Shown: one piece after another, positions 10,550 to 56,501 of the stretch
How the letters are laid out: each line of letters starts with the position of its first letter
Position numbering within the stretch: the first letter of the stretch is position 1
Assembly: GCA_046346885.1 (NCBI GenBank)
Contig: JAXMHI010000003.1
Location: forward strand, 93 to 64,092
Direction: 5' to 3'
DNA length: 64,000 bases
Source: a bacterium
Lineage (GTDB): Bacteria > UBA10199 > JADFYH01
Notes under the pieces: generated by a model
Seen by the model: the letters and a program-made list of their open reading frames with translations, nothing else
What the model was told of the DNA's origin: nothing
The model's database searches: none
Position numbers and translations under genes: made by a program

Positions 10550-13500
10550 ATGAGTCCCGTCACGGGTCAAATCGACAACCGCTATTCTGTTATCCGCATG
10601 TTGGGTGAAGGGTTCACGGGAGAAGTATATTTAGTGGAGTCTTCGGAAGGCCGTTTCGCGCTGAAACTTCTCAAGCCCTTTTCCGATCGGCGTCTCGAGG
10701 AAAGCATCATCCGTGCTTTTAAATTCGAGTTCGGTTTTTTGAAGGATTTGAGACACCCGAACGTGGTCCGTATCCAAGATTTCGGGTTCGACGATACGCT
10801 AAGACGGTTTTACTTTACCGAAGAATATCTCGACGGGAAGCCGCTCAACGATTTTTGCAAGGGCGCCTCCCCCGAGCTGATCGGAAACCTTTTCATCCAA
10901 TCGATCGAGGGACTCCAAGCAATTCATCGGGCCCATATTCTTCACGGCGACCTTAAAGGCAGCAATCTTCTGGTGATCGAAGAGGAAGGCGGTCCGGTTA
11001 TCAAGATCATCGACTTGGGCCTTTCCGATCCCCGTTTTCCCTTTACCGCCGGTACGCCCTCGACGATGGCGCCGGAGAAGATTTTGAAAGACCACGTGGA
11101 CGAGCGCTCCGATCTTTATTCGTTGGGAGTGGTCTTCTACCAGATCTTCACCGGATCAAATCCCTTCATCGGGAAAAACGTGAAGGAGACTTACCAAGCC
11201 CATCTCGCTCTGAGACCGCCCAAGATCACCTTGAAAAATCCCCAGGTACCTTCTTATTGGAACGAGATTTTCGACTGCCTGCTCGAGAAGAACCCCGCCC
11301 ACCGCTACCGGGACGCGGGCGCGCTGCTCGAGGCTATCGACTTCGCCAAGCCGCAAAAAGCGGGGAAGAAAAAAGTAAAGCCCTGGCGGCCCGAGCGTTG
11401 GGTGGGGCGCGAAAAGATCGTTGAGGAAGTGAGCGGGAAGCTGAAGGCGTTCTTCGAGAAAAAAAACGGCCCCGCGAAGGTTTTATTGCTCTTGGGCGAG
11501 AAAGGGGTGGGGAAAAGCCGCATCGTACAGGAAGTGAAGTATCTTTTCCAAATGGAGAAAGTGGAAGTGTTCGAGTCGAAACCGGGCAGCCTCTTTCCCC
11601 CGTCTTCGGAAGAGCCTCTTCTATGGGTGGTCGACGAGGGATCGCGTTTTTCGCCGGAGGAGCGGTCGCAGATATTAATCAAGATGGAAAAAAATTCCCC
11701 GTCTTGGGCGGCGCTTCTCTCCCTTTTGCCGGAGGAGGGGGAAGATCTCCTTTCCGACTTCGAGAAAAAGGGGGTCGAGGTTTCCAGCGTCACCGTTCGC
11801 CCCTTCACGCGCGAGGACTTAAACGAGTTTTTGAAGGAGCTCACCGACGTGAAGGAGGTTCCCGATCCGTTCTTGGACGGCTTGTGGGAGAAGACTCACG
11901 GCAATCCCCGTCTGGTGATCGGCCTGCTTGAACACTTGGTCGCGGACAAACGGCTGGTCGACGCCCGCGGCCATTGGAACCTTTCCATTTTCAAGGAGGG
12001 CGGCTTCGATCTGAGACCCTTGCCCTTGGACCTCTCCGAGATCGACCAAGCTTTGGTCATCTTGCCTGCGGGCGATCACAAGAATCGCACCGAATTGTGG
12101 ATCAAGCGCAGCGAAGAGCTCCTTAAAAAGAATTTGATCGACGAAGCGAGCGAGTCGTTAAAAAAAGCGGAAGAGGAAACCCAAAAGGTTCAGGACCTCT
12201 CCCAAAAACTCCACTTCCGCTCGCGCATCTACGAGAAGGAGGGGTGGAAGCTCATCCGCGAAGGCCACTTCGACGAGGCCCACAACCGCATGGAGCGGGC
12301 CCTCGCCCTCTTGGAAGAAAGCACGGTGATGGACGAGGTGCTTGAAATCCGCCTCCATAATTTCGTTGCTTGGCTCTATTGCCAGGAGGGAAAGTTCGAC
12401 GAGGCCATCACGCTCTTCGAGGAACAGCAGCGTCGTGCGGAAAAACTTCCCCCTGCCGAACAGCAGCGCGTCCTCAATAACGAATTGGGGCAGGCGTATT
12501 TGATGAAAGGGGATCTGAAGCGGGCGATTTTCTTCCTCGAGGCGGCCTTCGATTTTTACGAGAAGGTCGGCGACTTGCCCAGCCGCATGAAGGGGCTCTA
12601 CAACTTGGCGGAAGCGCACGCGCAGGCCAAAGATTATTCCAGGGCGATCCAGTATTATCTGAAAGCCGCCGAGATGTCGCGATTCCACCGCAACTTCGAG
12701 CTTTTGCTGCGTGCCTACAATGGCTTGGGGAAAACTTTCCACCTTCAAGGGAACTACAACGAGGGCTTGAGTTATTACGAGCGCGCCTTGGAACTTGCCC
12801 GCTATCTCGAAGATTATTTGAGCGCCGCGGCCATCGCGCAAAACATCGGTTCCATCCAGTCGGAGCGTGGGGATTTCGAACCCGCCGATGCCCACTTCGA
12901 GCTTTCGCTCAAGATGCTGCGCAAGCTTTCCCAATTGAACGCCCACGCCAAATACCTCATCTGCCGAGCTTTGCTGGAGAAGGGCGATCTCTACCGCAAG
13001 CAGAAGAAATTCAAGGACGCGGAAGAGCTGATCCGCGACGCTTTCCAGCTCACCCAACAGGAAAGCTCCCTCGCTTCGTTCCGTTTCTGGGTGCTCTACA
13101 CCCAGTCGCAGTTGGAAAGAGACCAAGGGAATTTCGAGAAACTCAAAGACCTCATGGCCGAGCTGATGCCTCTGGCCGACGACGGCGAGAAGCGGGATCG
13201 TTGCCGCGAGTTGCTGCAGGACAAAACGATGACGCCGGTAGTGGCCCCTGCAGAAATCCATCGCACCCGCGCCGAAGCCATTCCCGCCTCACCTTCCCGT
13301 TCGGGGGCCTTGGAGGCCTTGATTCGGGTGGCGCGCTGGCTCGCCTCCGAAAAGGATCCCGAGCGGCTCTTGCCCCTCATCATCCGCCAGGCAACCGAGC
13401 TTTCCGGGGCGGAGGCGAGGTCGTGCTCTTGGAAGACGCGGGAGGCAAGATGGTCCCGCGCGCGAGCGTAAATTTGAGTTTGAACGAAACGCTCGCCCAG

Positions 13501-15079
13501 ATGAGCCAGAAGATGGCCGCTCAGGTTCTGGCTACGGGAGAGGTATTGCAGACGGGCAATGCCCAGCAAGACGACCGTTTCCGCATTTACGAATCCGTGG
13601 TGGATTTGGGGCTTCAATCGATTCTCGCCCTGCCCATCCGCAGCGAAAATCGGGTGATGGGCGTTCTCTCCCTGGTGCACCGCCACCGGATGAACGCATT
13701 TCAGGACGTCTCTCTCGAGCTCATGCTCGCCTTCGCCGACCAGGCGGGGATTGCGCTCGAGAACGCCCGTTTGGTGAAGAGCTTGGAAGAGGCGCAAGGT
13801 CGCCTGTCTAGGGATCTCCAACAAACCCAAGAAGAGCTGGATGAGGTCCGCCGGAATATTTCCGGGGCCGAGGTGCTCAAGCGTTTCATCGGCGAGAAGC
13901 TCATCAGCGGAAACAAGGCGATGGGCGAGTTGTTCAGCGTGGTGGAACGTCTGCGCGACACCGATCTTTCCGTGTTGCTTCATGGCGAATCGGGGACGGG
14001 CAAAGAACTTATCGCCCGCTCCCTCCACCGCAAGTCGCGGCGCGCTGCGAAGCCGTTCGTGGCGGTGAACTGCGCGGCCTTGCCGGCCAACCTCATCGAA
14101 AGCGAGCTCTTCGGTTACCGGGCCGGCGCCTTTACCGGGGCCACGCGAGACAAGAAAGGGCTCATCGAGGCGGCCCACGAAGGCACCCTCTTTCTCGACG
14201 AGATCGCCGAACTCGAATTGCCCCTGCAAGCCAAGCTGCTGCGCGTGCTCGAAGAGCGGGAGGTGACGCGCTTGGGGGACGTGAAACCCGTTGCCGTCGA
14301 TTTTCGCCTCATTTCCGCTTCGCACCGGAACTTGAAGGAAGAGATCGTCCTGCAGAAATTCCGCGAGGATCTTTTTTACCGCATCTGTGAGATCGAGCTA
14401 AAATTCCGCCGCTGCGCGAGAAAGGAAGATATCCCGCTGTTGGCTCAGGCCTTCATCGACGAATATCTCGGCAAAGAAGGGGGCGCAAAGAGAAGAAGGA
14501 GGAGGAGGAGAGGTGCGTTTAAGGAGGGATCTCTTAAAGCTTCTCATCGATTATTCTTGGCCCGGCAACTGAGGGAGTTGGAAAATGTGATTCGCGTCGC
14601 CACGGCGCTGCGCAAAGGGAGCATTTTGCACACCGAAGACGTTCCCGAAAGCGTGCGGGCTTCGTGGGGCGATGCGAAGAAAAAGGCATCGGCGATCTCC
14701 CCGCCGGAACCCCTCGCGACTTTTCCCCAAACGCCTCTCCTTCCACTTTGTTCGACCCGAAAAAAAGTTGGCAAGAAATGGAGACGGTGGCCCTCGCCAA
14801 ATCCCTCCTCCATTTTGGTTTCGACGTGAAAAAAGCCTCGGAGGCCTTAGGCTGCGCGGTTTCGAAGCTCTATCAGCGGATGCGGGAGTACGGGCTCGAA
14901 AAGCGGAAAGATGAATTTCAAACCCATCCTTTCATTTATTCTCCCAAGAGAGCTTCTTTGGAAACCCTCAAGCGGCAAGTGTTTGCGGGGCTTTAAAATA
15001 TTGTGAGAACAGCCCCTATCAAGCCGCCCGCCTTTTGAAAGTGAGTCCGGGGATGGTGTATCAGTGGATGCGTTCTTAA
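10550..15079 (+). pseudogene. Ser/Thr kinase - P-loop NTPase - TPR - GAF - sigma54 AAA+ - HTH regulator (EBP1), broken by at least 5 frameshifts (sequence error or pseudogene)
   Basis: Parts lie in ORFs 10550..13471, 13201..14829 and 14664..14996, plus an untracked tail ending LKYCENSPYQAARLLKVSPGMVYQWMRS* at 15079. It is collinear with intact paralog 46612..51369. Motifs: HGDLK, GEKGVGKS, GESGTGKE, GAFTGA (14125..14142), and DYSWPGN/RELENV split by a frame change. Confidence 0.8.
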
Positions 15080-15091
15080 CTTTCCTGGACC

Positions 15092-15105
15092 TTTACAATT
15101 TGTAT
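15092..15105. promoter_or_regulatory. Candidate activator (UAS) palindrome TTTACAATTTGTAT
   Basis: ACA-N3-TGT core about 93 nt upstream of the sigma54 -24 element at 15191. Same core as boxes 15421, 51407 and 56502. Confidence 0.35.
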
Positions 15106-15190
15106 CCTTAAAGGTTACAACCCGCGCGATAAAAGTAATTCATCCCCGCCTTATTTTTAAAAACCTAAATATTTTCAATGAGTTAATTTT

Positions 15191-15206
15191 TGGCATTTCC
15201 ATTGCT
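15191..15206 (+). promoter_or_regulatory. sigma54 (-24/-12) promoter
   Basis: TGGCATttccaTTGCT, with exact consensus spacing. Confidence 0.65.
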
Positions 15207-15215
15207 TTTAAGAAG

Positions 15216-15398
15216 GGGTGCACACGCAAAGTCATGGGGATGACTTTGGATGGAAAAAACTGGCCTGGGGAAAATATAGAAGGATGGCAAAAGAATTGAG
15301 AAGTTTCTGGCCCGAGAAAGGCTCGGACAGAAAAAAACAACCTAAGCCCTCCTCACTGAAAACGGCCTTTGTCAAAAGCAAAGGCCGTTTTGTTTTTT
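15216..15398 (+). ncRNA. Candidate sigma54-dependent small RNA (about 180 nt), or a very small ORF transcript
   Basis: Bounded by the sigma54 promoter at 15191 and an intrinsic terminator at 15359..15398. Internal hairpins are AAGTCAT-GGGG-ATGACTT and CCGAG-AAAGG-CTCGG. An unpaired CCCTCCTCA lies just before the terminator. No convincing RBS-plus-ORF is present. Confidence 0.4.
15359..15398 (+). terminator. Rho-independent terminator
   Basis: 13-bp stem AAAACGGCCTTTG/CAAAGGCCGTTTT with loop TCAAAAG, followed by a TTTTGTTTTTT tail. Confidence 0.75.
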
Positions 15399-15420
15399 GG
15401 ATTATCTTGTGCACTCGAAT

Positions 15421-15434
15421 TATACATTTTGTAA
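15421..15434. promoter_or_regulatory. Candidate activator (UAS) palindrome TATACATTTTGTAA
   Basis: ACATTTTGT core about 72 nt upstream of the sigma54 -24 element at 15499. Confidence 0.35.
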
Positions 15435-15498
15435 ATAGATTGTGCGTTATGGAATCTAATAATTTTAATAAATCGAATAAAATCAATAAGTTAAAATT

Positions 15499-15514
15499 TG
15501 GCATCCATGTTGCT
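15499..15514 (+). promoter_or_regulatory. sigma54 (-24/-12) promoter for 15563..16000
   Basis: TGGCATccatgTTGCT with exact consensus spacing, about 50 nt upstream of the ATG. Confidence 0.65.
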
Positions 15515-15562
15515 TTATAGAAAAGTGTCTCCACATGAGACAAGAAAGAGAAGGAGAAAATT

Positions 15563-16000
15563 ATGGCGACGAAAACGATGGGTTTAAGCTTTCATGACGG
15601 TAAATGTTACGCGCAGCAATTCGTGGATAATGGAAAAGGCGGAAAAGATTATCGTGAAGTGGAATGGGATTTAGCGAAGGGCAAGCCGGTGGTGCATACG
15701 CCGGAGAAAAAATCGGCGGAGATGGCGAAGGCCAAGGGCGGACTTTCCACTCTCGTGGGCGGCGGAAAACCCGCGACCACCCCTAAGAAGAATCTTTTCG
15801 ATCCTAAGCACCATAAACCGCAGTTCGCTTCGCCGACTTTCATGGCGGACGTGAAGGCGAATGCGACTCCCAACAAAAAGGGCAAGGTGGATGCTCCCGT
15901 GGTGAAACCGCTCACGGCCCCCGAAGTGACGCCCACCCCGATGACGAGATACGCGCTCGCCCACGGCACCTCGATCGGCTACGCGAAGAAGTCTGCTTAA
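15563..16000 (+). CDS. Lys/Pro-rich hypothetical protein (145 aa), no signal peptide
   Basis: ATG with an AAGGAG RBS 7 nt upstream. A terminator follows the ORF. I recognise no domain. Confidence 0.7.
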   Translation: MATKTMGLSFHDGKCYAQQFVDNGKGGKDYREVEWDLAKGKPVVHTPEKKSAEMAKAKGGLSTLVGGGKPATTPKKNLFDPKHHKPQFASPTFMADVKANATPNKKGKVDAPVVKPLTAPEVTPTPMTRYALAHGTSIGYAKKSA

Positions 16001-16042
16001 TTTTTGAATGGTCAGGTAGCGGCAAGGAAACTTGCTAAGAAG

Positions 16043-16082
16043 ACCCCGCGCAATCGTATGGTTCGCGGGGTTTTGCTTTTTT
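16043..16082 (+). terminator. Rho-independent terminator
   Basis: Stem CCCCGCG/CGCGGGG followed by TTTTGCTTTTTT. Confidence 0.6.
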
Positions 16083-16695
16083 ATTCCATGAGGACCGGGA
16101 GCAAATGAGGATCTATGCCTTCGGCGGTGAGGATTTTAAAGGTGGTGTCGAAGGCGTAAGGGATTTTCCAGAGGGCTCGATCGAAGATTTCCGGGTAAAG
16201 CTTCTTGAACCCCATCAAATAAAACCCTCCTTCTTGCGTGGGGCCGAATACGGCGTCTTCGTCTTTTAAAATCTCGAAGGCCTGCATGAAATGAGGTCGG
16301 CCGATGGAGGGCCGGTGGGAGGCGCCGAGCACGACCCTCTCGTAACGTTCGAACATGGTTTTGAAGATGTTTTCGAGCCGGTTGCCGAGAAAATCCCCTC
16401 GCTGAGGGGAAAGGCGAGGACTGAAAGCCATTTTCTTGTACTCCGCGACGGGGTAACGCGGGTCATAGAAGGCCAAGGCTTCATATTCTTTTCCGACGGG
16501 CCGGCAGCCGAGGAATGTTTTGCTCGCTTGTTCGAAAAAATGGGCAATGGCCTCTTCATTTCCTTCGCGCGTGGAGGAGCGGCGGTTCCAAGGGCCGTGA
16601 AGGGGCGAGGGGAGGAAAAGGGCCAAGCCGCATTCCTTCTTTTTCTTATGCGAAGAGGGGAGTGGCTTCTTTTTTTTGTGGGCGTGGTTTTTCAA
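16081..16695 (-). CDS. DUF2064-like (putative glycosyltransferase-fold) protein; start uncertain (TTG at 16695 assumed)
   Basis: The 3' third of tracked ORF 16081..17370. The C-terminal GPTQEGGFYLMGFKKLYPEIFDRALW...AFDTT resembles my recollection of the DUF2064 pattern (DGGYyLlGl...lF..i.Ws...v...T). The upstream part of that ORF is out of frame and overlaps dedA. Confidence 0.45.
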   Translation of the reverse strand: MKNHAHKKKKPLPSSHKKKKECGLALFLPSPLHGPWNRRSSTREGNEEAIAHFFEQASKTFLGCRPVGKEYEALAFYDPRYPVAEYKKMAFSPRLSPQRGDFLGNRLENIFKTMFERYERVVLGASHRPSIGRPHFMQAFEILKDEDAVFGPTQEGGFYLMGFKKLYPEIFDRALWKIPYAFDTTFKILTAEGIDPHLLPVLME

Positions 16696-17339
16696 TTTTC
16701 TTCCTTTTCGACGGGAATCTCGAAGTCTTCTTCCTTCGGTTCGGGGGCTTTTTGCCGCAAGCGGCTGATGACTTTGAAGCCGATGAAGAGAAAAAAGAGA
16801 GCCGCGATCACCCAAATGCCGTGTTCCACCCGCTTCACCCACACGATCAGTTGATCCAATTCTCCCCCGAAATGGTAGGCCAAATAGGTGAGGAGCGGGA
16901 TGGAGAGCAACGCGGCCGCTCCGTCGAAAAGGGCCATTTTTGAGAAGGGGATCTTGAAGGCTCCGGCGCTCAAGAAGATCGGCGCCCTGAGCCCCACCAA
17001 AAAGCGCGCGAAAAAAAGCGTGCGGCTCCCGTATTGATGGAAATAGTGGTTGATGGCCTTCACCCGCTTGGGCGTGAAAAGCCAGGTGAGGCGCCGGTGG
17101 GCGATGATATCCGAGCCGTAGCGCCGGCCGATTCCGTAGAGCAAGAAGTCGCCGATCATGGCTCCCGCGTAAAGAACGATCAGGGTAGGCAAGAAACGGG
17201 TTTCCCCTAAATAGGCCAGGTAGCCGCCGGTGATGATGACCAGGTCTTCCGGCAGGGGAAGGCCCGCGCCGCAAAGCAGGAGAATGACAAAAAGCCCTTG
17301 ATAATGATAGTCCCCGATGTGTTGAAGGATGGTCTCCAT
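16692..17339 (-). CDS. dedA: DedA/SNARE-associated family membrane protein
   Basis: 215 aa and multi-pass hydrophobic. Contains the DedA-type motif GLPLPEDLVIITGGYLA. Confidence 0.8.
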   Translation of the reverse strand: METILQHIGDYHYQGLFVILLLCGAGLPLPEDLVIITGGYLAYLGETRFLPTLIVLYAGAMIGDFLLYGIGRRYGSDIIAHRRLTWLFTPKRVKAINHYFHQYGSRTLFFARFLVGLRAPIFLSAGAFKIPFSKMALFDGAAALLSIPLLTYLAYHFGGELDQLIVWVKRVEHGIWVIAALFFLFIGFKVISRLRQKAPEPKEEDFEIPVEKEEN

Positions 17340-17373
17340 GGAGCGGAGAAAAGCATAGCAGCTCGTTCATAAA

Positions 17374-18420
17374 ATGTTTACACGAGATTTTTCATTCGAG
17401 TACCCGCAAGAATTGGTCGCCCAAGAGGGCCTCGCCGAGCGCGACGCCTCGCGCATGATGGCGCTCGACCGAGGCCGTCAAACCATTGCCCATCGGGTGT
17501 TTCGCGACTTACCTTCTTACTTCAATAAAGGCGACCTGCTTTTGCTCAACAACACCAAAGTCCTGCCCGCCCGGCTGTGGGGAAGGAAAAAGTCCGGCGG
17601 AAAGGTGGAGATCTTGCTCATCCGCCCTTGGCGAGGGCAGGCGTGGGAGTGTTGGGTCCGCTCTCTCAAGGGTTTGCAAGACGGAAGCGAGATTTTATTT
17701 TCAAGAAACGGCGCCGACTTCGCCGCCCGATTGCGTTTCGAGCCGGAAGAGAACCTAAAGACGATCGAGTTTCCTCCCGACGTTCCGGTTCTCGATTTCA
17801 TGCGCGAGCAAGGGGCGGCCCCTCTCCCGCCTTACATTAAGCGTCCGGAACCCCGAGTCGGCGACCGCGAACGCTATCAAACCGTCTTTGCCGAAAAAGA
17901 AGGGGCGATCGCCGCGCCGACCGCGTCGCTCCATTTTACGCCCCGAATCTTGAAAGAGCTTTCCGAGAAGGGAGTGGAAATTCGATATCTCACCCTTCAC
18001 GTGGGCATCGGCACCTTCCAGCCGGTCACCTCGGAAAATGTGGAGGATCACCGGATGCAGGAAGAGTTTTACGAGATTTCCGAAGAAACGGCGGAGGCCG
18101 TTCGGTGGGCAAAACGGGAAGGCCGCCCGGTGACGGCCGTCGGGACCACTTGCGTGAGGGCGGTAGAGTCTTATTTTCAAGATCCTTCCGTCGTTCCACC
18201 ATCGCCGGGGACGCTTCTCTCCACGCGGCTTTTTATCCATCCCGGCTATTCTTTCCAAATCGTCGACCGCTTTCTCACCAATTTCCACCAGCCGGAATCG
18301 ACTCCCCTTTTCTTGACGAGCGCCTTCGCGGGAAAAGAATTCCTCTTCCGCGCCTACGCGGAAGCGATCCGAGAGAAGTATCGCCTCTTCAGCTACGGCG
18401 ACTGCATGTGGATTTTCTGA
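17374..18420 (+). CDS. queA: S-adenosylmethionine:tRNA ribosyltransferase-isomerase
   Basis: 348 aa. FDFxYPxELIAQ-like N-terminus, VLPARL, PLPPYI and HFTP motifs, typical length. Confidence 0.9.
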   Translation: MFTRDFSFEYPQELVAQEGLAERDASRMMALDRGRQTIAHRVFRDLPSYFNKGDLLLLNNTKVLPARLWGRKKSGGKVEILLIRPWRGQAWECWVRSLKGLQDGSEILFSRNGADFAARLRFEPEENLKTIEFPPDVPVLDFMREQGAAPLPPYIKRPEPRVGDRERYQTVFAEKEGAIAAPTASLHFTPRILKELSEKGVEIRYLTLHVGIGTFQPVTSENVEDHRMQEEFYEISEETAEAVRWAKREGRPVTAVGTTCVRAVESYFQDPSVVPPSPGTLLSTRLFIHPGYSFQIVDRFLTNFHQPESTPLFLTSAFAGKEFLFRAYAEAIREKYRLFSYGDCMWIF

Positions 18421-18450
18421 AAATAAAAAAGGCCCCTTGCGGGGCCTTCT
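18421..18450. terminator. Bidirectional hairpin terminator between queA and 18504..19016
   Basis: AGGCCCC-TTGC-GGGGCCT, flanked by an A-run upstream and a T-containing tail downstream. On the minus strand it reads as stem plus TTTTTTATTTT. Confidence 0.6.
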
Positions 18451-18503
18451 AAAACTTTTCTCTTTTTTCCTGACCTTCTAAAGAGGGGTTTTAAACAACG
18501 TCG

Positions 18504-19016
18504 TTACATCTGCGGATCGGAAAGCGTCGCTTTCAAGGTCTTGAGCATTTGCGGATCGGAAAGCACCGTCTGCAAGGCCTTGATCATTTGGGGATCGGAA
18601 GCGGCCATCGTCTTCACCACGTTGTACATCTTCTCGTCGGCGAGCAGGGTGTTCACCGCGGTATCCTTGTCCATCTGGGGATCCGAAGAAGCGAACTCTT
18701 CTCCCTTGATCATCTGGGGATCGGAGGCCGTCAACATTTGAGGATCGGACGCGACGAGCATTTGAGGATCGGAAGAAACGGCGTTGGCCTTGATCATTTG
18801 GGGATCCGATTCCACCGTCTTTTCCAAGGGCAACATCTGAGGATCGGAATAAGCCCGCACCGCCTTATTCATTTGGGGATCCGAAAAGAATTGATTGAGC
18901 GCGCCGTAGAGAGTCGGTTTCGCCGCCCGAACCGTCGCTTGTCCTGAGAAGGCTTTTCCTTGGGCTCCCACCGTCGCAACCACTAAAGCTACTGCAACTA
19001 ACCACTTCCTGACCAT
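18504..19016 (-). CDS. Secreted repeat protein with 10 copies of the pentapeptide SDPQM (170 aa from the internal ATG)
   Basis: Signal peptide MVRKWLVAVALVVATVGAQG. An AAAAGGAGAAG RBS precedes the ATG at 19016. SDPQM recurs 10 times and the protein ends exactly in ...LSDPQM*. Confidence 0.8.
   Translation of the reverse strand: MVRKWLVAVALVVATVGAQGKAFSGQATVRAAKPTLYGALNQFFSDPQMNKAVRAYSDPQMLPLEKTVESDPQMIKANAVSSDPQMLVASDPQMLTASDPQMIKGEEFASSDPQMDKDTAVNTLLADEKMYNVVKTMAASDPQMIKALQTVLSDPQMLKTLKATLSDPQM
18507..18884 (-). repeat. Coding repeat: 15-nt unit TC(N)GATCC(N)CA(R)ATG, 10 copies, irregularly spaced
   Basis: On the plus strand, CAT(C/T)TG(C/A/G)GGATC(C/G)GA recurs 10 times between 18507 and 18884. 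Confidence 0.85.
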
Positions 19017-46611: not shown

Positions 46612-49600
46612 CTATTTTTTTCCCATTCTTTCCTCAATATAAGCTTTCATCTCCATTCGACTCGTGGGCACACCGTGTTTTGTCATCTGGGTATAGAGAT
46701 AGCGTCGAGAAATTCCTAAATTTTTGGCGGCGAACCCCTTGTGATAACCGTTGTCGTAAAGGGCTTTGAGCAGCAGGCGTTTTTCTTCCGGCAAAGCGGA
46801 GGAGGGAGCGGTGATGAAGGGGGTTTTTTCTTCCTTCTTGGGGACACCAAACGGAACTTTCGCGCCTCCCCCGAAAAGCACCTTCTTGAAATGGAAAGAC
46901 TTGGGGATGATCTTACCCTTCTGGTGAAAGAGGGAAGCGGTGCGCAGCGTATTTTCCAACTCCCTTACGTTCCCCGGCCAGGGGTAATCCATTAAAAGTT
47001 CGAAGGACTCCGGCGCCATCTCGTAGGGTTCGCGTTTTTCTTCCTTCGCCGACTTCTTCAAGAAATGTTGGGCGAGCAGGGGAAGGTCTTCCAGCCGTTC
47101 CCGCAAGGGGGGCAAAACGACCGTTACGCCGTTTAAACGGTAAAATAAATCCTCCCGAAATTTTTTCTCGGCGATGAGGGCCTGCAGGTCTTGGTTGGAA
47201 GCGGAAACCACGCGCACATCCACCCGGATCACCTCATTGGAGCCGAGCGGACGGATTTCCCCCTCTTGAAGGAAGCGCAAGAGCTTGGCCTGCATGGCCC
47301 CGCTCATGTCGGCGATTTCGTCCAAAAAAATCGTGCCGCCGTTCGCGTATTCGAGGAGTCCTTTCTTGTCGCGGTCCGCATGGGTAAAGGAGCCGCGTTT
47401 GTGGCCGAAGAGCTCCGATTCCAAAAGGGTCTCGGGCAAGGCCGAGCAGTTCTCGCTGACGAAGGGTTTTTTCGCCCGGGAACTGTTGAAGTGCAGCACC
47501 CGAGCGATCATCTCTTTTCCCGTGCCCGATTCTCCGTAGATCCAAACGGGCACCTTCGTTTCGATGAGCCGGTCCACCAGCGACAGCACTTCGAGCATGG
47601 CGGGCGATTGGCCGACGATGTCTTTATATTGATGGATGAGTTTCTGCCGCTGGTCCTCCACTTCCCGTTTCAGGGCGATCATCTCGGAGGCCTGCACTTC
47701 CACGGCCCGGCTTAAACTTTCGTTGGCCTTTTCCAGTTCTTCGATCATCTGGGCTTTTTGAAGACCCAAGGCCGCCTGATCGGCGAACATTTGAAGGAGA
47801 TTCAAGTCGGCTCCCCGAAAAAGCCCCGTTTCGTAGCGGTGGTCCAAATACAAGGCGCCGAGGATTCCTTTCGTGCCTTTCAGCGGAAGGGCGAGGATCG
47901 ATTTCAACTCCAGTTGATGCACGCTGGGCGCCGCTTCGAAGCGCCGGTCTTGCAAGGCGTTGTCGGTCACCACCGCCTCGCCCGTCTTCATCGCCTCGCG
48001 GACGGAGGATAAGCTCAACGTGAAATCCTGGCTTTCCAGAAGCTCCTTCGCCACGTTGCGGGCCGCTTTCACCTCGAAACCGGGGAGGGGCCCCCGCGAA
48101 TTTTCGCTTCGGATCACGAGAAACCCCCGTTCGGCGTTCGAAAGTCCCATTGCAGCGTCCATGAGGCGGATTAAGACCTCGTCTAAGTTTGTGGAGCTTA
48201 AGATTTCTCTCGTGAGAGCGGTAAGCTTTTGCAAGGCGTCCATGTTTTTTCTCCCGGAGCTCCCCATTGAAAGAGGGGACGACGTTTTCTCCGTTCCTAA
48301 AATATATTTCTGGTAATCCGCCCGTTCCTCGAAAGAGATTTTAAAGGGATCGGGAAGAGTTTGGTAAGTTTCCGTTAAAAGGGTTTGAAGGGTAGGGGAG
48401 TCTTTTTCCAAAAAAGCCCTCAAAAGTCGTTGCTCCAAGTCCCAAGGTTCGGCGGGTCTCTTTTCGTCGAAGGAAAAAGGAATCCGGGGAAGGCGGGAGA
48501 GAAAATCGTCTCCTTCCTTGATGAGGTCTATTTGAAACCTTATTTCCTTTCGCCGTTGCGTAAAGGCCGGATCTTCCGTTTTTTGCGCCAAGGCTTCGCT
48601 GAAAGCTTGTTCCGATCTTTTGAAGCGCCCTATCGAGGCTTCCGCCAAGGCCAGTTGGAGAAGATTCAACCCCCTTTCGAAGGCATTTCCCAAGAAGGCG
48701 AAGATCTCACGGGCCTTCTCCAATTCCTCCAAGGCTAAATGGAAATTCGCCCTGCGGCAGGCCATGACTCCGATGTTTTGATGGACGCGGGCCAGCGAAA
48801 CGTCGTCCCGGTGTTCGAAAGCGACCTGCAGAGCCCGGGCGTAGGCATGGTCCATCGCCTCCATTTTTCCCAACTTTAAAGCTAAGTTTCCGCGTTCGAG
48901 GGCGATCGAAAAAAGACCCTTATGATTTTGAAGCGATTGAAAGATTTTTTCAGAGGTCTCCAGAAAACCTAAGGCGCCTTCCCAGTCTTTCCTCTGAACC
49001 GCCAAAAGGGCCTCGTATTGCAGTACCTCCGCTTGGGGCGCGCTTTCTTCAGGAAGAAGTGCGAGGGCCGCGGCGAAATGTTCTTGAGCGGATGAAAGCG
49101 CCTCGTTCTCCAGATCCAAACGTCCGAGTAAGGCATGGGCGCGGGCGAGAAAAGGGCGGTGGGATTCGCTTTGAGGGGCTCCCGCCTTCAAACACTCTTC
49201 CCATCGTCGCCGGGCTTCTTTCCCGTTTCCCATATTTTGGTGAAGTACACCGGTAATTTGCCAATACTTTATCGGGTTGAGCCTCAAAGGATCCGTGGGA
49301 AATTTCTCGAACCACTGTTCCAAAGTATTTAAGGCCTGCGAAAAAAGTCCGAGCCGACCATAGGCGTTGGCGATGAGGCGCAAGAGCATTTCCTGACCCG
49401 TCCACTCCTCGGTGAGGGAAAAACACTTTTCATAGAGTGCGATGGCGGAAGGATCTTCCTCGCGGAGGGTGTAAACATCGCCCGCCCGCAATGCCCAAGA
49501 GAGCCGCTGGGGATGATGCGGAACTCGTACGGCGTGATGGGCCAAGGCCAGACAAAGATCGGGAGGGAGATCTTGATTCGCCGGGATTTCTTTTTCCAGA

Positions 49601-51369
49601 AGGCGGAGCCACGCTTCGTGCGGAACCTCCGGGGGAACGGGGGAGCTTTGCAAGACCCTTTCCGCCTGAGGGGGGTGGGCGAAGCAATAGACTTCGCGTT
49701 CTCCCTCAAAATCCGTCCGGATGAAGCTTAAATGGCGAAGGGCTTGTAGCTTTTCACGGAGTTCCGCCGGCTTAAGACCCGTGAGGATCAGTAATTCTTC
49801 GAAAGCGGCACCCTGGAATGCGGCGGCCAAGAAGGCGAGGATCTTTTTTTCTTTCTCGCCCTGCCGACTCCACCGGTCCTCAAAGAGCTCTTCCGAAGTC
49901 TTGGAGAGGCCGATTCGTCGCAGCTCTGAGACGGTAAAGCGTTTCTTTTTTAAAATTCCGGAAAGTTGAATTCCGCGCGCCAGATCCGTGATCACCTGCG
50001 GATTTCCTTGGGAAAGCGCTTGGAGTTCTTGAAGTGCTTCGGGCGGGAACTCGCGGTTCAAAAGAGCCTTGAAGAGCAGGCCGGTGTTTCGAACGTCGAG
50101 ATTTTCGAGCTTGAGGTCGAGGACATGGGGCTGCCTCGCCAAATATAAGAAAGAACCCAACTGCGTAGGCTCTATTTTTTCGTCGTTGTATTCTAAGACG
50201 ACGGAGCCGGAAGGTTTCGAAGAGGAACGCAGAAACCGATACAGTTCTTCCCGATGGCTGGGTTTTAAGGTTTCGGCGGATGGAATCATGCGGACTTCCC
50301 CCTCCGCAAAACCTTCCAGGATTTCTTTCTTCGCGTGAGGGGGATGTTTCGTGGCCCGGGTTCCTTGAAGCGAAAGTTGGAAAAATAGCTCGCGCAAGAA
50401 ACGGCTTTTTCCCGTCCCCGTCAAACCGTGGAGCAACACGATGGCCCGCTGATTTTCCAGCCTTGTTTTTTGAAGGAAGTTGAAGAAATCCTCCCACTTT
50501 TTCTCCACTCCGAACATTTGAAAGGAATGGAGGACGTTTGCCTTGCTTTCCTCTTCGTTTTCCTCCTTCTCTTGCCGCAACGCCTCCCGGGCGTCCTTTG
50601 CCGATTGAAGACGTGAGGAAAGATCCGGTGCGATCATCCGTTCCACCACTCGAGCGGCTGTGGGAGACAGAGGGGGGCATAATTTTTTAAGGCTTTGGAC
50701 CTCGGAAGAGAACAAACCCTTTAGGTCTTTCGCGTCGCCGCGGGGGTGTCGCCCGGTAAAGGCTTGGTAGAAAACGGTGCCCAACGAGAAAAGATCGCTC
50801 GCCGGCAAACGCTCGCCGTCCATCGCTTCGGGGGCCATATAGGGAAGGGTTCCCCGGGGTTGGGAGGGAAGAGGGGAGGTGAAATGGTGCGAGACGGTGG
50901 CCAAGCCGAAATCCACCAATTTGAGACGCCCCTTTTCATCGATCAAGAGGTTCCCGGGTTTCAAATCCCCGTGAAGAACGCCTTGTCCGTGAAGATATTC
51001 CAGCGCATCCAAGGCTTCTTCCAGCCAGCGAACCATCGTTCGGGGCTCCGCGGAGGAAGCCGCGTCCAAGATCGGAGCTCCGGGTATGTACTCCATCCAA
51101 AAGCTCGGTTTTTTTTCCCTTGAGGAAGAAGGTTCCAACCCCTTCATCTCTTCACTTGTTTTCGAGAACCCCATGATTTCCACAAGCCCCGGATGTTTGA
51201 GTTTGGAAAGAAGATGAACCTCGCCCTCGAACAAAGGGAGCAGGGTGGGGGAAGAATTTTCTAAAATTTTTAAGGCGAAGACTTTTCCTTGCCCATCATA
51301 AGCCCGATAGACGGAACCCATGGCCCCCGACCCAACCAGTCGGTCCACTGTGAGAATGTCTTGAGACAT
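46612..51369 (-). CDS. Intact 1585-aa fusion regulator (EBP2): Ser/Thr kinase, P-loop NTPase, TPR-like repeats, GAF, sigma54-interaction AAA+ domain, Fis-type HTH
   Basis: Kinase motifs GSGAMGSV, FALKIL, HGDLKPGN, DFGLA and GTLPYMAPE. Walker A GLTGTGKS. GAF region. AAA+ motifs GESGTGKE, GSFTHA (47377..47394), IFLDEI and WPGNVRELEN. HTH FAAKNLGISRRYLYTQM. Confidence 0.9.
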   Translation of the reverse strand: MSQDILTVDRLVGSGAMGSVYRAYDGQGKVFALKILENSSPTLLPLFEGEVHLLSKLKHPGLVEIMGFSKTSEEMKGLEPSSSREKKPSFWMEYIPGAPILDAASSAEPRTMVRWLEEALDALEYLHGQGVLHGDLKPGNLLIDEKGRLKLVDFGLATVSHHFTSPLPSQPRGTLPYMAPEAMDGERLPASDLFSLGTVFYQAFTGRHPRGDAKDLKGLFSSEVQSLKKLCPPLSPTAARVVERMIAPDLSSRLQSAKDAREALRQEKEENEEESKANVLHSFQMFGVEKKWEDFFNFLQKTRLENQRAIVLLHGLTGTGKSRFLRELFFQLSLQGTRATKHPPHAKKEILEGFAEGEVRMIPSAETLKPSHREELYRFLRSSSKPSGSVVLEYNDEKIEPTQLGSFLYLARQPHVLDLKLENLDVRNTGLLFKALLNREFPPEALQELQALSQGNPQVITDLARGIQLSGILKKKRFTVSELRRIGLSKTSEELFEDRWSRQGEKEKKILAFLAAAFQGAAFEELLILTGLKPAELREKLQALRHLSFIRTDFEGEREVYCFAHPPQAERVLQSSPVPPEVPHEAWLRLLEKEIPANQDLPPDLCLALAHHAVRVPHHPQRLSWALRAGDVYTLREEDPSAIALYEKCFSLTEEWTGQEMLLRLIANAYGRLGLFSQALNTLEQWFEKFPTDPLRLNPIKYWQITGVLHQNMGNGKEARRRWEECLKAGAPQSESHRPFLARAHALLGRLDLENEALSSAQEHFAAALALLPEESAPQAEVLQYEALLAVQRKDWEGALGFLETSEKIFQSLQNHKGLFSIALERGNLALKLGKMEAMDHAYARALQVAFEHRDDVSLARVHQNIGVMACRRANFHLALEELEKAREIFAFLGNAFERGLNLLQLALAEASIGRFKRSEQAFSEALAQKTEDPAFTQRRKEIRFQIDLIKEGDDFLSRLPRIPFSFDEKRPAEPWDLEQRLLRAFLEKDSPTLQTLLTETYQTLPDPFKISFEERADYQKYILGTEKTSSPLSMGSSGRKNMDALQKLTALTREILSSTNLDEVLIRLMDAAMGLSNAERGFLVIRSENSRGPLPGFEVKAARNVAKELLESQDFTLSLSSVREAMKTGEAVVTDNALQDRRFEAAPSVHQLELKSILALPLKGTKGILGALYLDHRYETGLFRGADLNLLQMFADQAALGLQKAQMIEELEKANESLSRAVEVQASEMIALKREVEDQRQKLIHQYKDIVGQSPAMLEVLSLVDRLIETKVPVWIYGESGTGKEMIARVLHFNSSRAKKPFVSENCSALPETLLESELFGHKRGSFTHADRDKKGLLEYANGGTIFLDEIADMSGAMQAKLLRFLQEGEIRPLGSNEVIRVDVRVVSASNQDLQALIAEKKFREDLFYRLNGVTVVLPPLRERLEDLPLLAQHFLKKSAKEEKREPYEMAPESFELLMDYPWPGNVRELENTLRTASLFHQKGKIIPKSFHFKKVLFGGGAKVPFGVPKKEEKTPFITAPSSALPEEKRLLLKALYDNGYHKGFAAKNLGISRRYLYTQMTKHGVPTSRMEMKAYIEERMGKK

Positions 51370-56406: not shown

Positions 56407-56501
56407 TTATTTAATTATTTGAAATTATTATATTTTTTAAATTTTAGAAAAAAAAGAGGAAATGGTGAATTGAGTACAATGGGAAGTTATTTGATCTGAT
56501 A

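Follow-up and report, generated by a model that had tools for sequence, protein, structure and literature searches.

The locus raises the question whether a sigma-54 promoter and the terminator behind it, both in the spacer downstream of a large activator gene, constitute the gene of a small RNA (sRNA). The stretch of DNA that was analysed (64,000 nucleotides (nt), hereafter the window) comes from an uncultured, deltaproteobacteria-like lineage. The spacer covers 484 nt from the stop codon of the activator gene (15077-15079) to the next ATG (15563) and has a G+C content of 31-45%, compared to 54% in the genome. It contains two sigma-54 promoters, here called P1 and P2. An earlier interpretation based on the letters only, the sequence-only reading, proposed that P1 and the terminator delimit a sigma-54-dependent sRNA. 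The promoter, the terminator and the absence of a gene between them have stood the analysis; the proposed seed is predicted to be paired, the body of the RNA does not differ in its folding from shuffled sequences, and no target came out. We put the chances at about even that P1 gives rise to a discrete non-coding RNA dependent on sigma-54, and that this RNA is a trans-acting regulator can be suggested only tentatively. The features of the P1 unit are the following.

15094-15104, no strand assigned: palindrome TACAATTTGTA, candidate enhancer (upstream activating sequence) of P1, about 118 nt upstream of the presumed transcription start.
15173-15185, forward strand: IHF-like box TTTCAATGAGTTA (motif WWTCAANNNNTTR), which begins 18 nt before the -24 element of P1.
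15191-15206, forward strand: sigma-54 promoter P1, TGGCATTTCCATTGCT, which is TGGCAT-N5-TTGCT, an exact -24/-12 consensus.
15227-15248, forward strand: 5' stem-loop H1, CAAAGUCAU-GGGG-AUGACUUUG, 9 bp, present in the minimum free energy and centroid structures with a pairing probability of about 1.
15281-15353, forward strand: H2, an extended imperfect stem of the predicted fold, with its apex hairpin at 15304-15333.
15347-15355, forward strand: C/U-rich stretch CCCUCCUCA, the proposed seed, complementary to Shine-Dalgarno (SD) sequences of the GGAGG type.
15359-15398, forward strand: intrinsic terminator with a stem (15359-15391) of 14 pairs (6 G-C) and a 5-nt loop, followed by GTTTTTTGG with the U-tract UUUUGUUUUUU.

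The promoter is where the sequence-only reading had placed it. Exact matches to TGGCAY-N5-TTGCW occur three times in the window, where shuffling gives an expectation of 0.06, and two of the three, P1 and P2, are in the spacer. P1 conforms to the consensus -24/-12 sequence (TGGCAC-N5-TTGCW), it is intergenic and correctly oriented, and the genome has an rpoN gene (C24:32158-32634). The position of the unit between the activator gene, which stops at 15079, and a second sigma-54 unit (P2, 15499-15514) was also correctly described. From -45 to +5 the sequences of P1 and P2 are almost identical. The second unit consists of:

15423-15433, no strand assigned: palindrome TACATTTTGTA, candidate enhancer of P2, about 98 nt upstream of the P2 start.
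15481-15493, forward strand: IHF-like box AATCAATAAGTTA, matching WATCAANNNNTTR perfectly and located 18 nt before P2.
15499-15514, forward strand: sigma-54 promoter P2, TGGCAT-N5-TTGCT, followed by a 5' hairpin, the SD sequence GAAGGAG and an ATG 48 nt downstream.
15563-16000, forward strand: orphan gene for a protein of 145 amino acids (aa), predicted to be driven by P2, gene-like in codon score and in G+C content at third codon positions (GC3).

Judged from the usual spacing to the GC of the -12 element (15204-15205), transcription from P1 would start in the run of G at about 15216-15218, and a transcript extending from there to the U-tract would be about 175-183 nt long. The palindrome TACAWTTTGTA is found in two copies in the window (0.02 expected), one upstream of P1 and one upstream of P2, and these same two are the only copies in the genome of 2.76 Mb. 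Its core, ACAWWWTGT, occurs 18 times in the genome; 4 of these copies sit 75-108 nt upstream of a sigma-54 promoter-like site, where 0.06 are expected, an enrichment of about 70-fold. Among the four promoters concerned are one on contig C1 and 56391(-), the neighbour of a second kinase-activator gene. P1 thus has a predicted enhancer at -118, and the activator gene ends 15 nt before this palindrome. An IHF-like motif at most 60 nt upstream accompanies 15 of the 54 sigma-54 promoter-like sites (0.25 expected), and in six promoters (P1, P2, 56391(-) and three others) the box has an offset of 17-19 nt from the TGG. The box of promoter 56391(-) is located as follows.

56409-56421, reverse strand: IHF-like box upstream of promoter 56391(-), with the fixed offset shared with P1 and P2.

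It should be noted that this position is unusually near the -24 element for an IHF site. The genome has four genes of the HU/IHF family. Several independent features indicate that P1 is a real promoter, one which presumably also fires.

A strong intrinsic terminator had been claimed at 15359-15398, and the structure found there, a perfect stem with a long U-tract, justifies the claim; it is similar to the other perfect-stem terminators of the genome, of which there are roughly 390. No terminator was detected on the forward strand between the activator stop at 15079 and 15359, so the mRNA of the activator must also end at this hairpin. It is unlikely to serve the activator gene alone, because it is located 280 nt past the stop codon, whereas the 394 perfect-stem terminators of the genome follow the preceding stop of a long open reading frame (ORF) at a median distance of 32 nt (quartile 25).

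The sequence-only reading saw no credible ORF between promoter and terminator, and codon usage, SD-start pairs and gene calling all agree with this. With a codon log-likelihood model derived from 821 long ORFs, the best frame in 15217-15358 obtains a score of -0.045 and has a GC3 of 0.49; real coding windows of equal length score 0.33 +/- 0.22, and the GC3 of long ORFs is 0.675. The about 50 further sigma-54 promoter-like sites of the genome mostly have a GGAGG or AGGAG and an ATG within 25-80 nt downstream, and unlike most such sites with a nearby ORF P1 is not followed by a GGAGG/AGGAG-ATG pair spaced by 3-9 nt. The 21-codon ORF at 15234-15299 has a single SD-like run, AAGGGG, which ends at 15218 and thus, as already pointed out, lies 15 nt upstream; both AUGs of this ORF are inside the 9-bp hairpin H1. 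A further AUG, at 15284, follows directly on the SD-like AGAAGGA and opens a frame that reaches the terminator without a stop. The 100-aa ORF beginning with GTG (15218-15520) does cross both the terminator and P2, as had been stated. The sequence itself can be trusted here: an independent Logan assembly contig, L156 (10.5 kb), is identical to the window base for base from 14989 to 19000, and the gene caller of that assembly places no gene in the spacer. An assembly of run SRR26348421 also contains the locus. From this evidence the P1 unit is concluded to be in all probability non-coding.

Three coding candidates were considered and rejected. A hidden frameshifted ORF in the P1 unit is ruled out by the identity with L156. 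When the 100-aa frame was searched exhaustively with HMMER among 1.8 billion representatives, no real homologue was obtained; the single match, a protein of 766 aa (P0102, E 6e-34), is made up of twelve identical 63-aa repeats and is an artefact, one repeat alone reaching 29 bits, a score without significance in a database of this size. P0102 illustrates how summed repeat scores can mimic homology to a non-coding frame. On the reverse strand a 66-codon ORF starting with TTG (15340-15140) has a perfect SD sequence, GAGGAGGG, the complement of the C/U-rich motif, 6 nt upstream; it was dismissed on account of a negative codon score, the absence of an upstream promoter and the absence of a gene call.

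The two hairpins which the sequence-only reading expected in the transcript are found by folding as H1 (15227-15248) and the apex of H2 (15304-15333). Hairpins comparable to H1 follow P2 and other sigma-54 promoters of the genome, and H1 is therefore a general feature of sigma-54 transcripts in this organism rather than a property of an sRNA. In the basal helix of H2, AGGA.UGG (15281-15288) is paired with GCC.UCCU (15346-15353), which in the predicted fold brings GCCCUCCU of the seed together with the internal AGGAUGGC (15281-15288). The fold of the whole RNA has a z-score of -3.2, mainly due to the terminator. The stretch CCCUCCUCA forms better duplexes with translation-start regions than shuffled seeds do, the mean energies being -14.5 and -11.1 kcal/mol, respectively. 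A search of Rfam 15 (4227 models) gave a tRNA as the sole match at gathering level in the window; at E <= 10 there was only noise in the P1 region and no known sigma-54 sRNA family. The RNA body occurs only once in the genome.

Several results weigh against a functional sRNA. With the terminator left out, the RNA body has a z-score of -1.44, and 17 of 200 shuffled sequences fold equally well; in terms of this folding model there is no statistical sign of selected structure in it. The C/U-rich stretch is present and complementary to GGAGG, as the sequence-only reading had it, but the statement that it is unpaired does not hold: for most of its bases the predicted probability of being unpaired is about 0, and some 6.3 kcal/mol would be needed to open it. 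Target prediction, which had been suggested as a check, was carried out by calculating the energy of the duplex between the seed and each of about 2800 start regions, and no specific target emerged. There was no outlier, the top energy being -29 where the lowest values with shuffled seeds ranged from -21 to -28, and the local genes, including the local sigma-54 targets, were within the bulk. Neither hfq nor proQ nor csrA was found in the assembly, which is 82% complete. Furthermore, AGAAGGAUGGCA looks like an SD sequence and a start codon lacking the spacer between them, which would suit a decayed small gene.

The comparison with other genomes points in the same direction. Searching 40 relatives with the spacer DNA returned promoter-like fragments only; it should be noted that the nearest genomes compared belong to other genera of the family. 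None of 93 genomes of the class has the pattern of enhancer plus promoter, and a scan of metagenome contigs for this pattern gave 120 unrelated hits, none of them similar to the P1 unit. Downstream of the activator orthologues with 59-64% identity, the place of the spacer is taken by a gene that is convergent or abuts closely, and no matching promoter or palindrome was found at the orthologous activator loci. Since homologues were found neither for the P1 unit nor for the 145-aa gene, there is nothing to align for an analysis of covariation. The module formed by P1 and P2 thus looks like a young, lineage-specific insertion.

The mechanism that we propose can be formulated as follows. The product of the activator gene is presumed to act on both P1 and P2. 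This kinase-STAND-GAF activator, or an intact paralogue encoded at 46612-51369, would bind the palindrome TACAATTTGTA at about -118, and with the help of an IHF-like bend at -44 to -32 it would contact sigma-54 RNA polymerase on TGGCAT-N5-TTGCT. Transcription would proceed from near G15217 to the U-tract behind the 14-bp hairpin (15359-15398). The same signal would fire P2, 300 nt downstream, such that the RNA and the orphan 145-aa protein would be produced together. The RNA would begin with a protective 5' hairpin, continue with a central domain that is weakly paired, and end with the terminator. Its likeliest action would be an Hfq-independent pairing of GCCCUCCUCA with G-rich ribosome-binding sites, which would require that the short internal helix with AGGAUGGC is opened. 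That none of hfq, csrA and proQ was found argues against a role as a sponge for a chaperone and, provided that the RNA has any action, in favour of pairing independent of a chaperone; the idea of a protein sponge was rejected because these genes were not detected.

Four other explanations of the locus have been considered. P1 and the terminator could be the decaying remnant of a small sigma-54-driven gene, or a duplicated promoter module, in which case the RNA would be functionless. Very small proteins (48-71 aa) are often under the control of sigma-54 promoters in this genome, and AGAAGGAUGGCAAAAGAA of the P1 unit resembles GAAGGAGAAAAUUAUGGCGACGAAA of P2 minus the spacer from SD to AUG; the missing homologues, the absence from the orthologous activator loci and the lack of significant structure in the RNA body fit as well. 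A relic should, however, show decay, and here the palindrome, the IHF-like box, the -24/-12 elements and the perfect 14-bp terminator are all intact, while no frame has kept any coding signal and no similarity to the P2 gene can be detected beyond the promoter. We consider a relic unlikely, although not very much so. The intact P1 could also be an upstream promoter of the 145-aa gene, with the hairpin at 15359-15398 as an attenuator which sets the read-through from P1. The two are on the same strand, the gap between terminator and ORF is only 165 nt, P1 and P2 have regulatory motifs in common, and by eye GAAAGGCUCGG (15316-15326) resembles the 3' arm of the terminator and could compete for the 5' arm. 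But P2 has a complete enhancer, IHF-like box and promoter of its own downstream of the terminator, the perfect 14-bp stem and the long U-tract have no stable alternative fold (pairing probability about 1), and no Rfam riboswitch or leader family matches. An attenuated leader is thus quite improbable.

That the activator mRNA must end at this same hairpin allows another view, namely that the hairpin terminates the activator gene after a long 3' untranslated region (3'UTR) and that P1 is bound by sigma-54 and rarely or never activated; the title of PMC4591121 describes non-productive binding of sigma-54 as widespread in E. coli. This view is at variance with the usual position of the terminators in this genome, about 20-35 nt after the stop and not 280 nt, and with the fact that P1 has the genome-unique palindrome and the fixed-offset IHF-like box in common with P2, a promoter that drives a gene. 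We regard a silent site as very improbable. Even less credit can be given to a micro-protein translated from the 21-codon ORF or from the AUG at 15284. ORFs do exist in the unit and small sigma-54-driven proteins are common in the genome, but the SD sequences are at unworkable distances (15 nt, or abutting the AUG) compared to the usual 3-9 nt, the 9-bp hairpin H1 encloses the two AUGs of the 21-codon ORF, and the frame from 15284 runs into the terminator without a stop. Codon score and GC3 are like those of non-coding DNA, no gene is called there, and the second assembly excludes a hidden frameshift. A sigma-54-dependent non-coding RNA made from P1 is the explanation that we prefer.

The functional statement about this locus that appears best founded is that the candidate sRNA would be co-regulated with the orphan 145-aa protein through the common palindrome. 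The gene of this protein looks like a gene (codon score 0.32, GC3 0.66). The protein has no Pfam hit, no homologue in 60 relatives, and none but itself among 5.8 billion proteins. It is rich in Lys, Pro and Ala, and its start does not resemble a signal peptide.

The activator gene upstream of the spacer can be described as follows.

10550-15079, forward strand: activator gene of about 1510 codons, a fusion of a Ser/Thr kinase, STAND-TPR, GAF and sigma-54 AAA+ parts, assigned from Pfam, orthologues and contig L156.

In the window the gene is broken up: the ORFs 10550-13471, 13201-14829 and 14664-14996 and the frame ending at 15079 are fragments of one gene, with Pfam matches to Pkinase, TPR, GAF, Sigma54_activat and HTH_8. 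Its orthologues are single full-length proteins of 1505-1521 aa (50-64% identity), and in L156, which is 99.67% identical to the window over 6.4 kb, the activator is one open frame with its end corresponding to window position 15079. All 21 differences between the window and L156, mostly indels of 1-3 nt, are confined to a stretch of 1.6 kb (13418-14988). Because the frame is intact in L156, this cluster of frameshifts represents a local assembly defect or a strain variant and not a dead regulator. The C-terminus of the activator (14770-15079; L156:2200-2517) apparently has two tandem helix-turn-helix (HTH) motifs of the Fis type, KKASEALGCAVSKLYQRMREYGL and SPYQAARLLKVSPGMVYQWMRS, where the usual number is one; the Pfam support for a tandem is weak, with an E-value of 0.0012 for HTH_8 and just a weak HTH_17 match for the second motif. 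A search of the genome contigs with the kinase as query gave distant TPR proteins only.

To see how the P1 unit compares with the rest of the genome, all sigma-54 promoter-like sites were checked for a terminator before any ORF with an SD sequence. At least four other promoter-to-terminator units have no ORF.

C21:145057-145167, reverse strand (promoter at 145167): unit of about 80-90 nt with the promoter TGGCACGGCCATTGCT, a 5' hairpin, a fully unpaired CUCCUCUCUCCUUC and no ORF.
C19:238551-238827, reverse strand (promoter at 238827): tandem unit of about 140 nt, containing hairpins and a terminator-like stem; a 65-aa ORF comes next, driven by a second sigma-54 promoter.
C7:73497, reverse strand: unit with a terminator at most 60 nt from the promoter.
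C12:29064, forward strand: unit with a terminator at most 60 nt from the promoter; here and in the C7 unit the next ORF with an SD sequence is at +169 to +191.

The C21 unit has a strong terminator (AAGGCCCCGC...GCGGGGCCTT plus T7), and in the predicted structures it is a cleaner sRNA candidate than the P1 unit; it is not conserved among 30 relatives. The C19 unit lies about 174 kb past the end of the window and has a tandem layout like that of P1 and P2. The C7 and C12 units could be short RNAs or attenuated leaders. Several of the five units carry C/U-rich anti-SD stretches, and two stand in tandem before a small orphan gene driven by sigma-54. The four similar units, which are themselves candidates, would lend credibility to the sRNA reading as a pattern that recurs in the genome. 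In its widest form, the hypothesis would be that at least five short RNAs driven by sigma-54, the one from P1 included, form a set, and that kinase-fused STAND activators run coupled RNA-plus-protein modules in this deltaproteobacteria-like lineage, with a sigma-54-dedicated and chaperone-independent riboregulation arising de novo beside activator genes; this is a speculation which we hold to be rather improbable.

An unrelated module turned up among the metagenome loci (L028, L030, L047, L054, L062, L085, L088, L089, L092, L093 and others). It is a well-conserved module from soil, with the layout GTTGCA...CTCTACAATTTGTAG, 64 nt, TGGCACATTGATTGCTC; about 25 nt further downstream there is a GGCGGTTCGGATGGGCGGG, which is conserved as well. 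By its appearance the module could be a sigma-54 promoter that has a palindromic enhancer of its own and drives the transcription of a conserved RNA or leader.

The P1 unit is an orphan known from a single genome, and its present value is that of a testable annotation and not of a discovery. If the sRNA reading is true, it would be another independently evolved sRNA gene right behind the gene of its sigma-54 activator, beside Pxr, NrsZ, CrcZ and Qrr1, and its setting would be an uncultured lineage in which no gene for a known sRNA chaperone was found, with an unusual kinase-STAND activator. The palindrome shared by P1 and P2 would define a mini-regulon of two promoters, one for an RNA and one for an orphan protein, which could be rebuilt in E. 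coli for the study of fusion activators.

How does the P1 unit relate to known systems? The sRNAs of the DapZ/MicL type are located in a 3'UTR, have their own promoter and have the terminator in common with the upstream mRNA. The likeness to the P1 unit is that there is no terminator between the upstream stop and the promoter of the candidate sRNA. RsaE/RoxS and LhrC are C-rich anti-SD sRNAs which are independent of Hfq and present several C-rich motifs in loops or single strands. The P1 RNA resembles them in having a C/U-rich motif complementary to GGAGG, in a genome where no Hfq gene was found; they have several exposed motifs, however, whereas the P1 RNA has the single CCCUCCUCA, which is predicted to be paired. 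The sole Rfam match to LhrC is noise, being on the opposite strand and reaching 19.7 bits against a threshold of 110 bits.

The Qrr sRNAs are Hfq-dependent, about 100 nt long and highly conserved. In Vibrio, qrr1 needs enhancer-binding proteins (PMC10162802). The likeness of the Qrr system (LuxO, sigma-54) to the mechanism proposed here is that its trans-acting sRNAs depend on sigma-54 and on an activator; their sequences have no similarity to the P1 RNA. In Pseudomonas, crcZ adjoins cbrB. CrcZ is activated by CbrB, IHF and sigma-N (PMC6296734). Control by an activator, IHF and sigma-54 is thus what CrcZ and CrcY would share with the P1 unit, and the middle of the P1 RNA is rich in purines and A; but CrcZ sponges Hfq/Crc by means of repeated A-rich motifs, and here neither an Hfq gene nor a repeated motif was found.

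Closer in layout is nrsZ of Pseudomonas aeruginosa, which is situated in the spacer between ntrC and PA5126 and specifies a non-coding RNA with an RpoN-consensus promoter and a dependence on ntrC (PMC4253122). As with P1, the RpoN promoter is right behind the activator gene; NrsZ, however, is processed to repeated short units and is conserved in pseudomonads, whereas the P1 unit has neither repeats nor homologues. In Myxococcus xanthus the pxr gene occupies the spacer directly downstream of nla19, a gene for a sigma-54 enhancer-binding protein, on the same strand and with its own sigma-54 promoter, and three stem-loops are predicted in the Pxr RNA (PMC5568312). Here, too, an sRNA gene with its own sigma-54 promoter stands behind an activator gene, and the host of the P1 unit is likewise deltaproteobacteria-like. 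Pxr has no similarity to the P1 RNA in sequence or by Rfam model; it is about 108 nt long and conserved across myxobacteria, whereas the P1 RNA would be about 180 nt and is found in one organism only, and Nla19 is a response regulator where the activator of the window is a kinase-STAND-GAF fusion. The layout of an activator gene followed by a sigma-54-driven sRNA gene is already established by pxr, nrsZ and crcZ, and by analogy the P1 unit, though a homologue of none of them, is a plausible further case.

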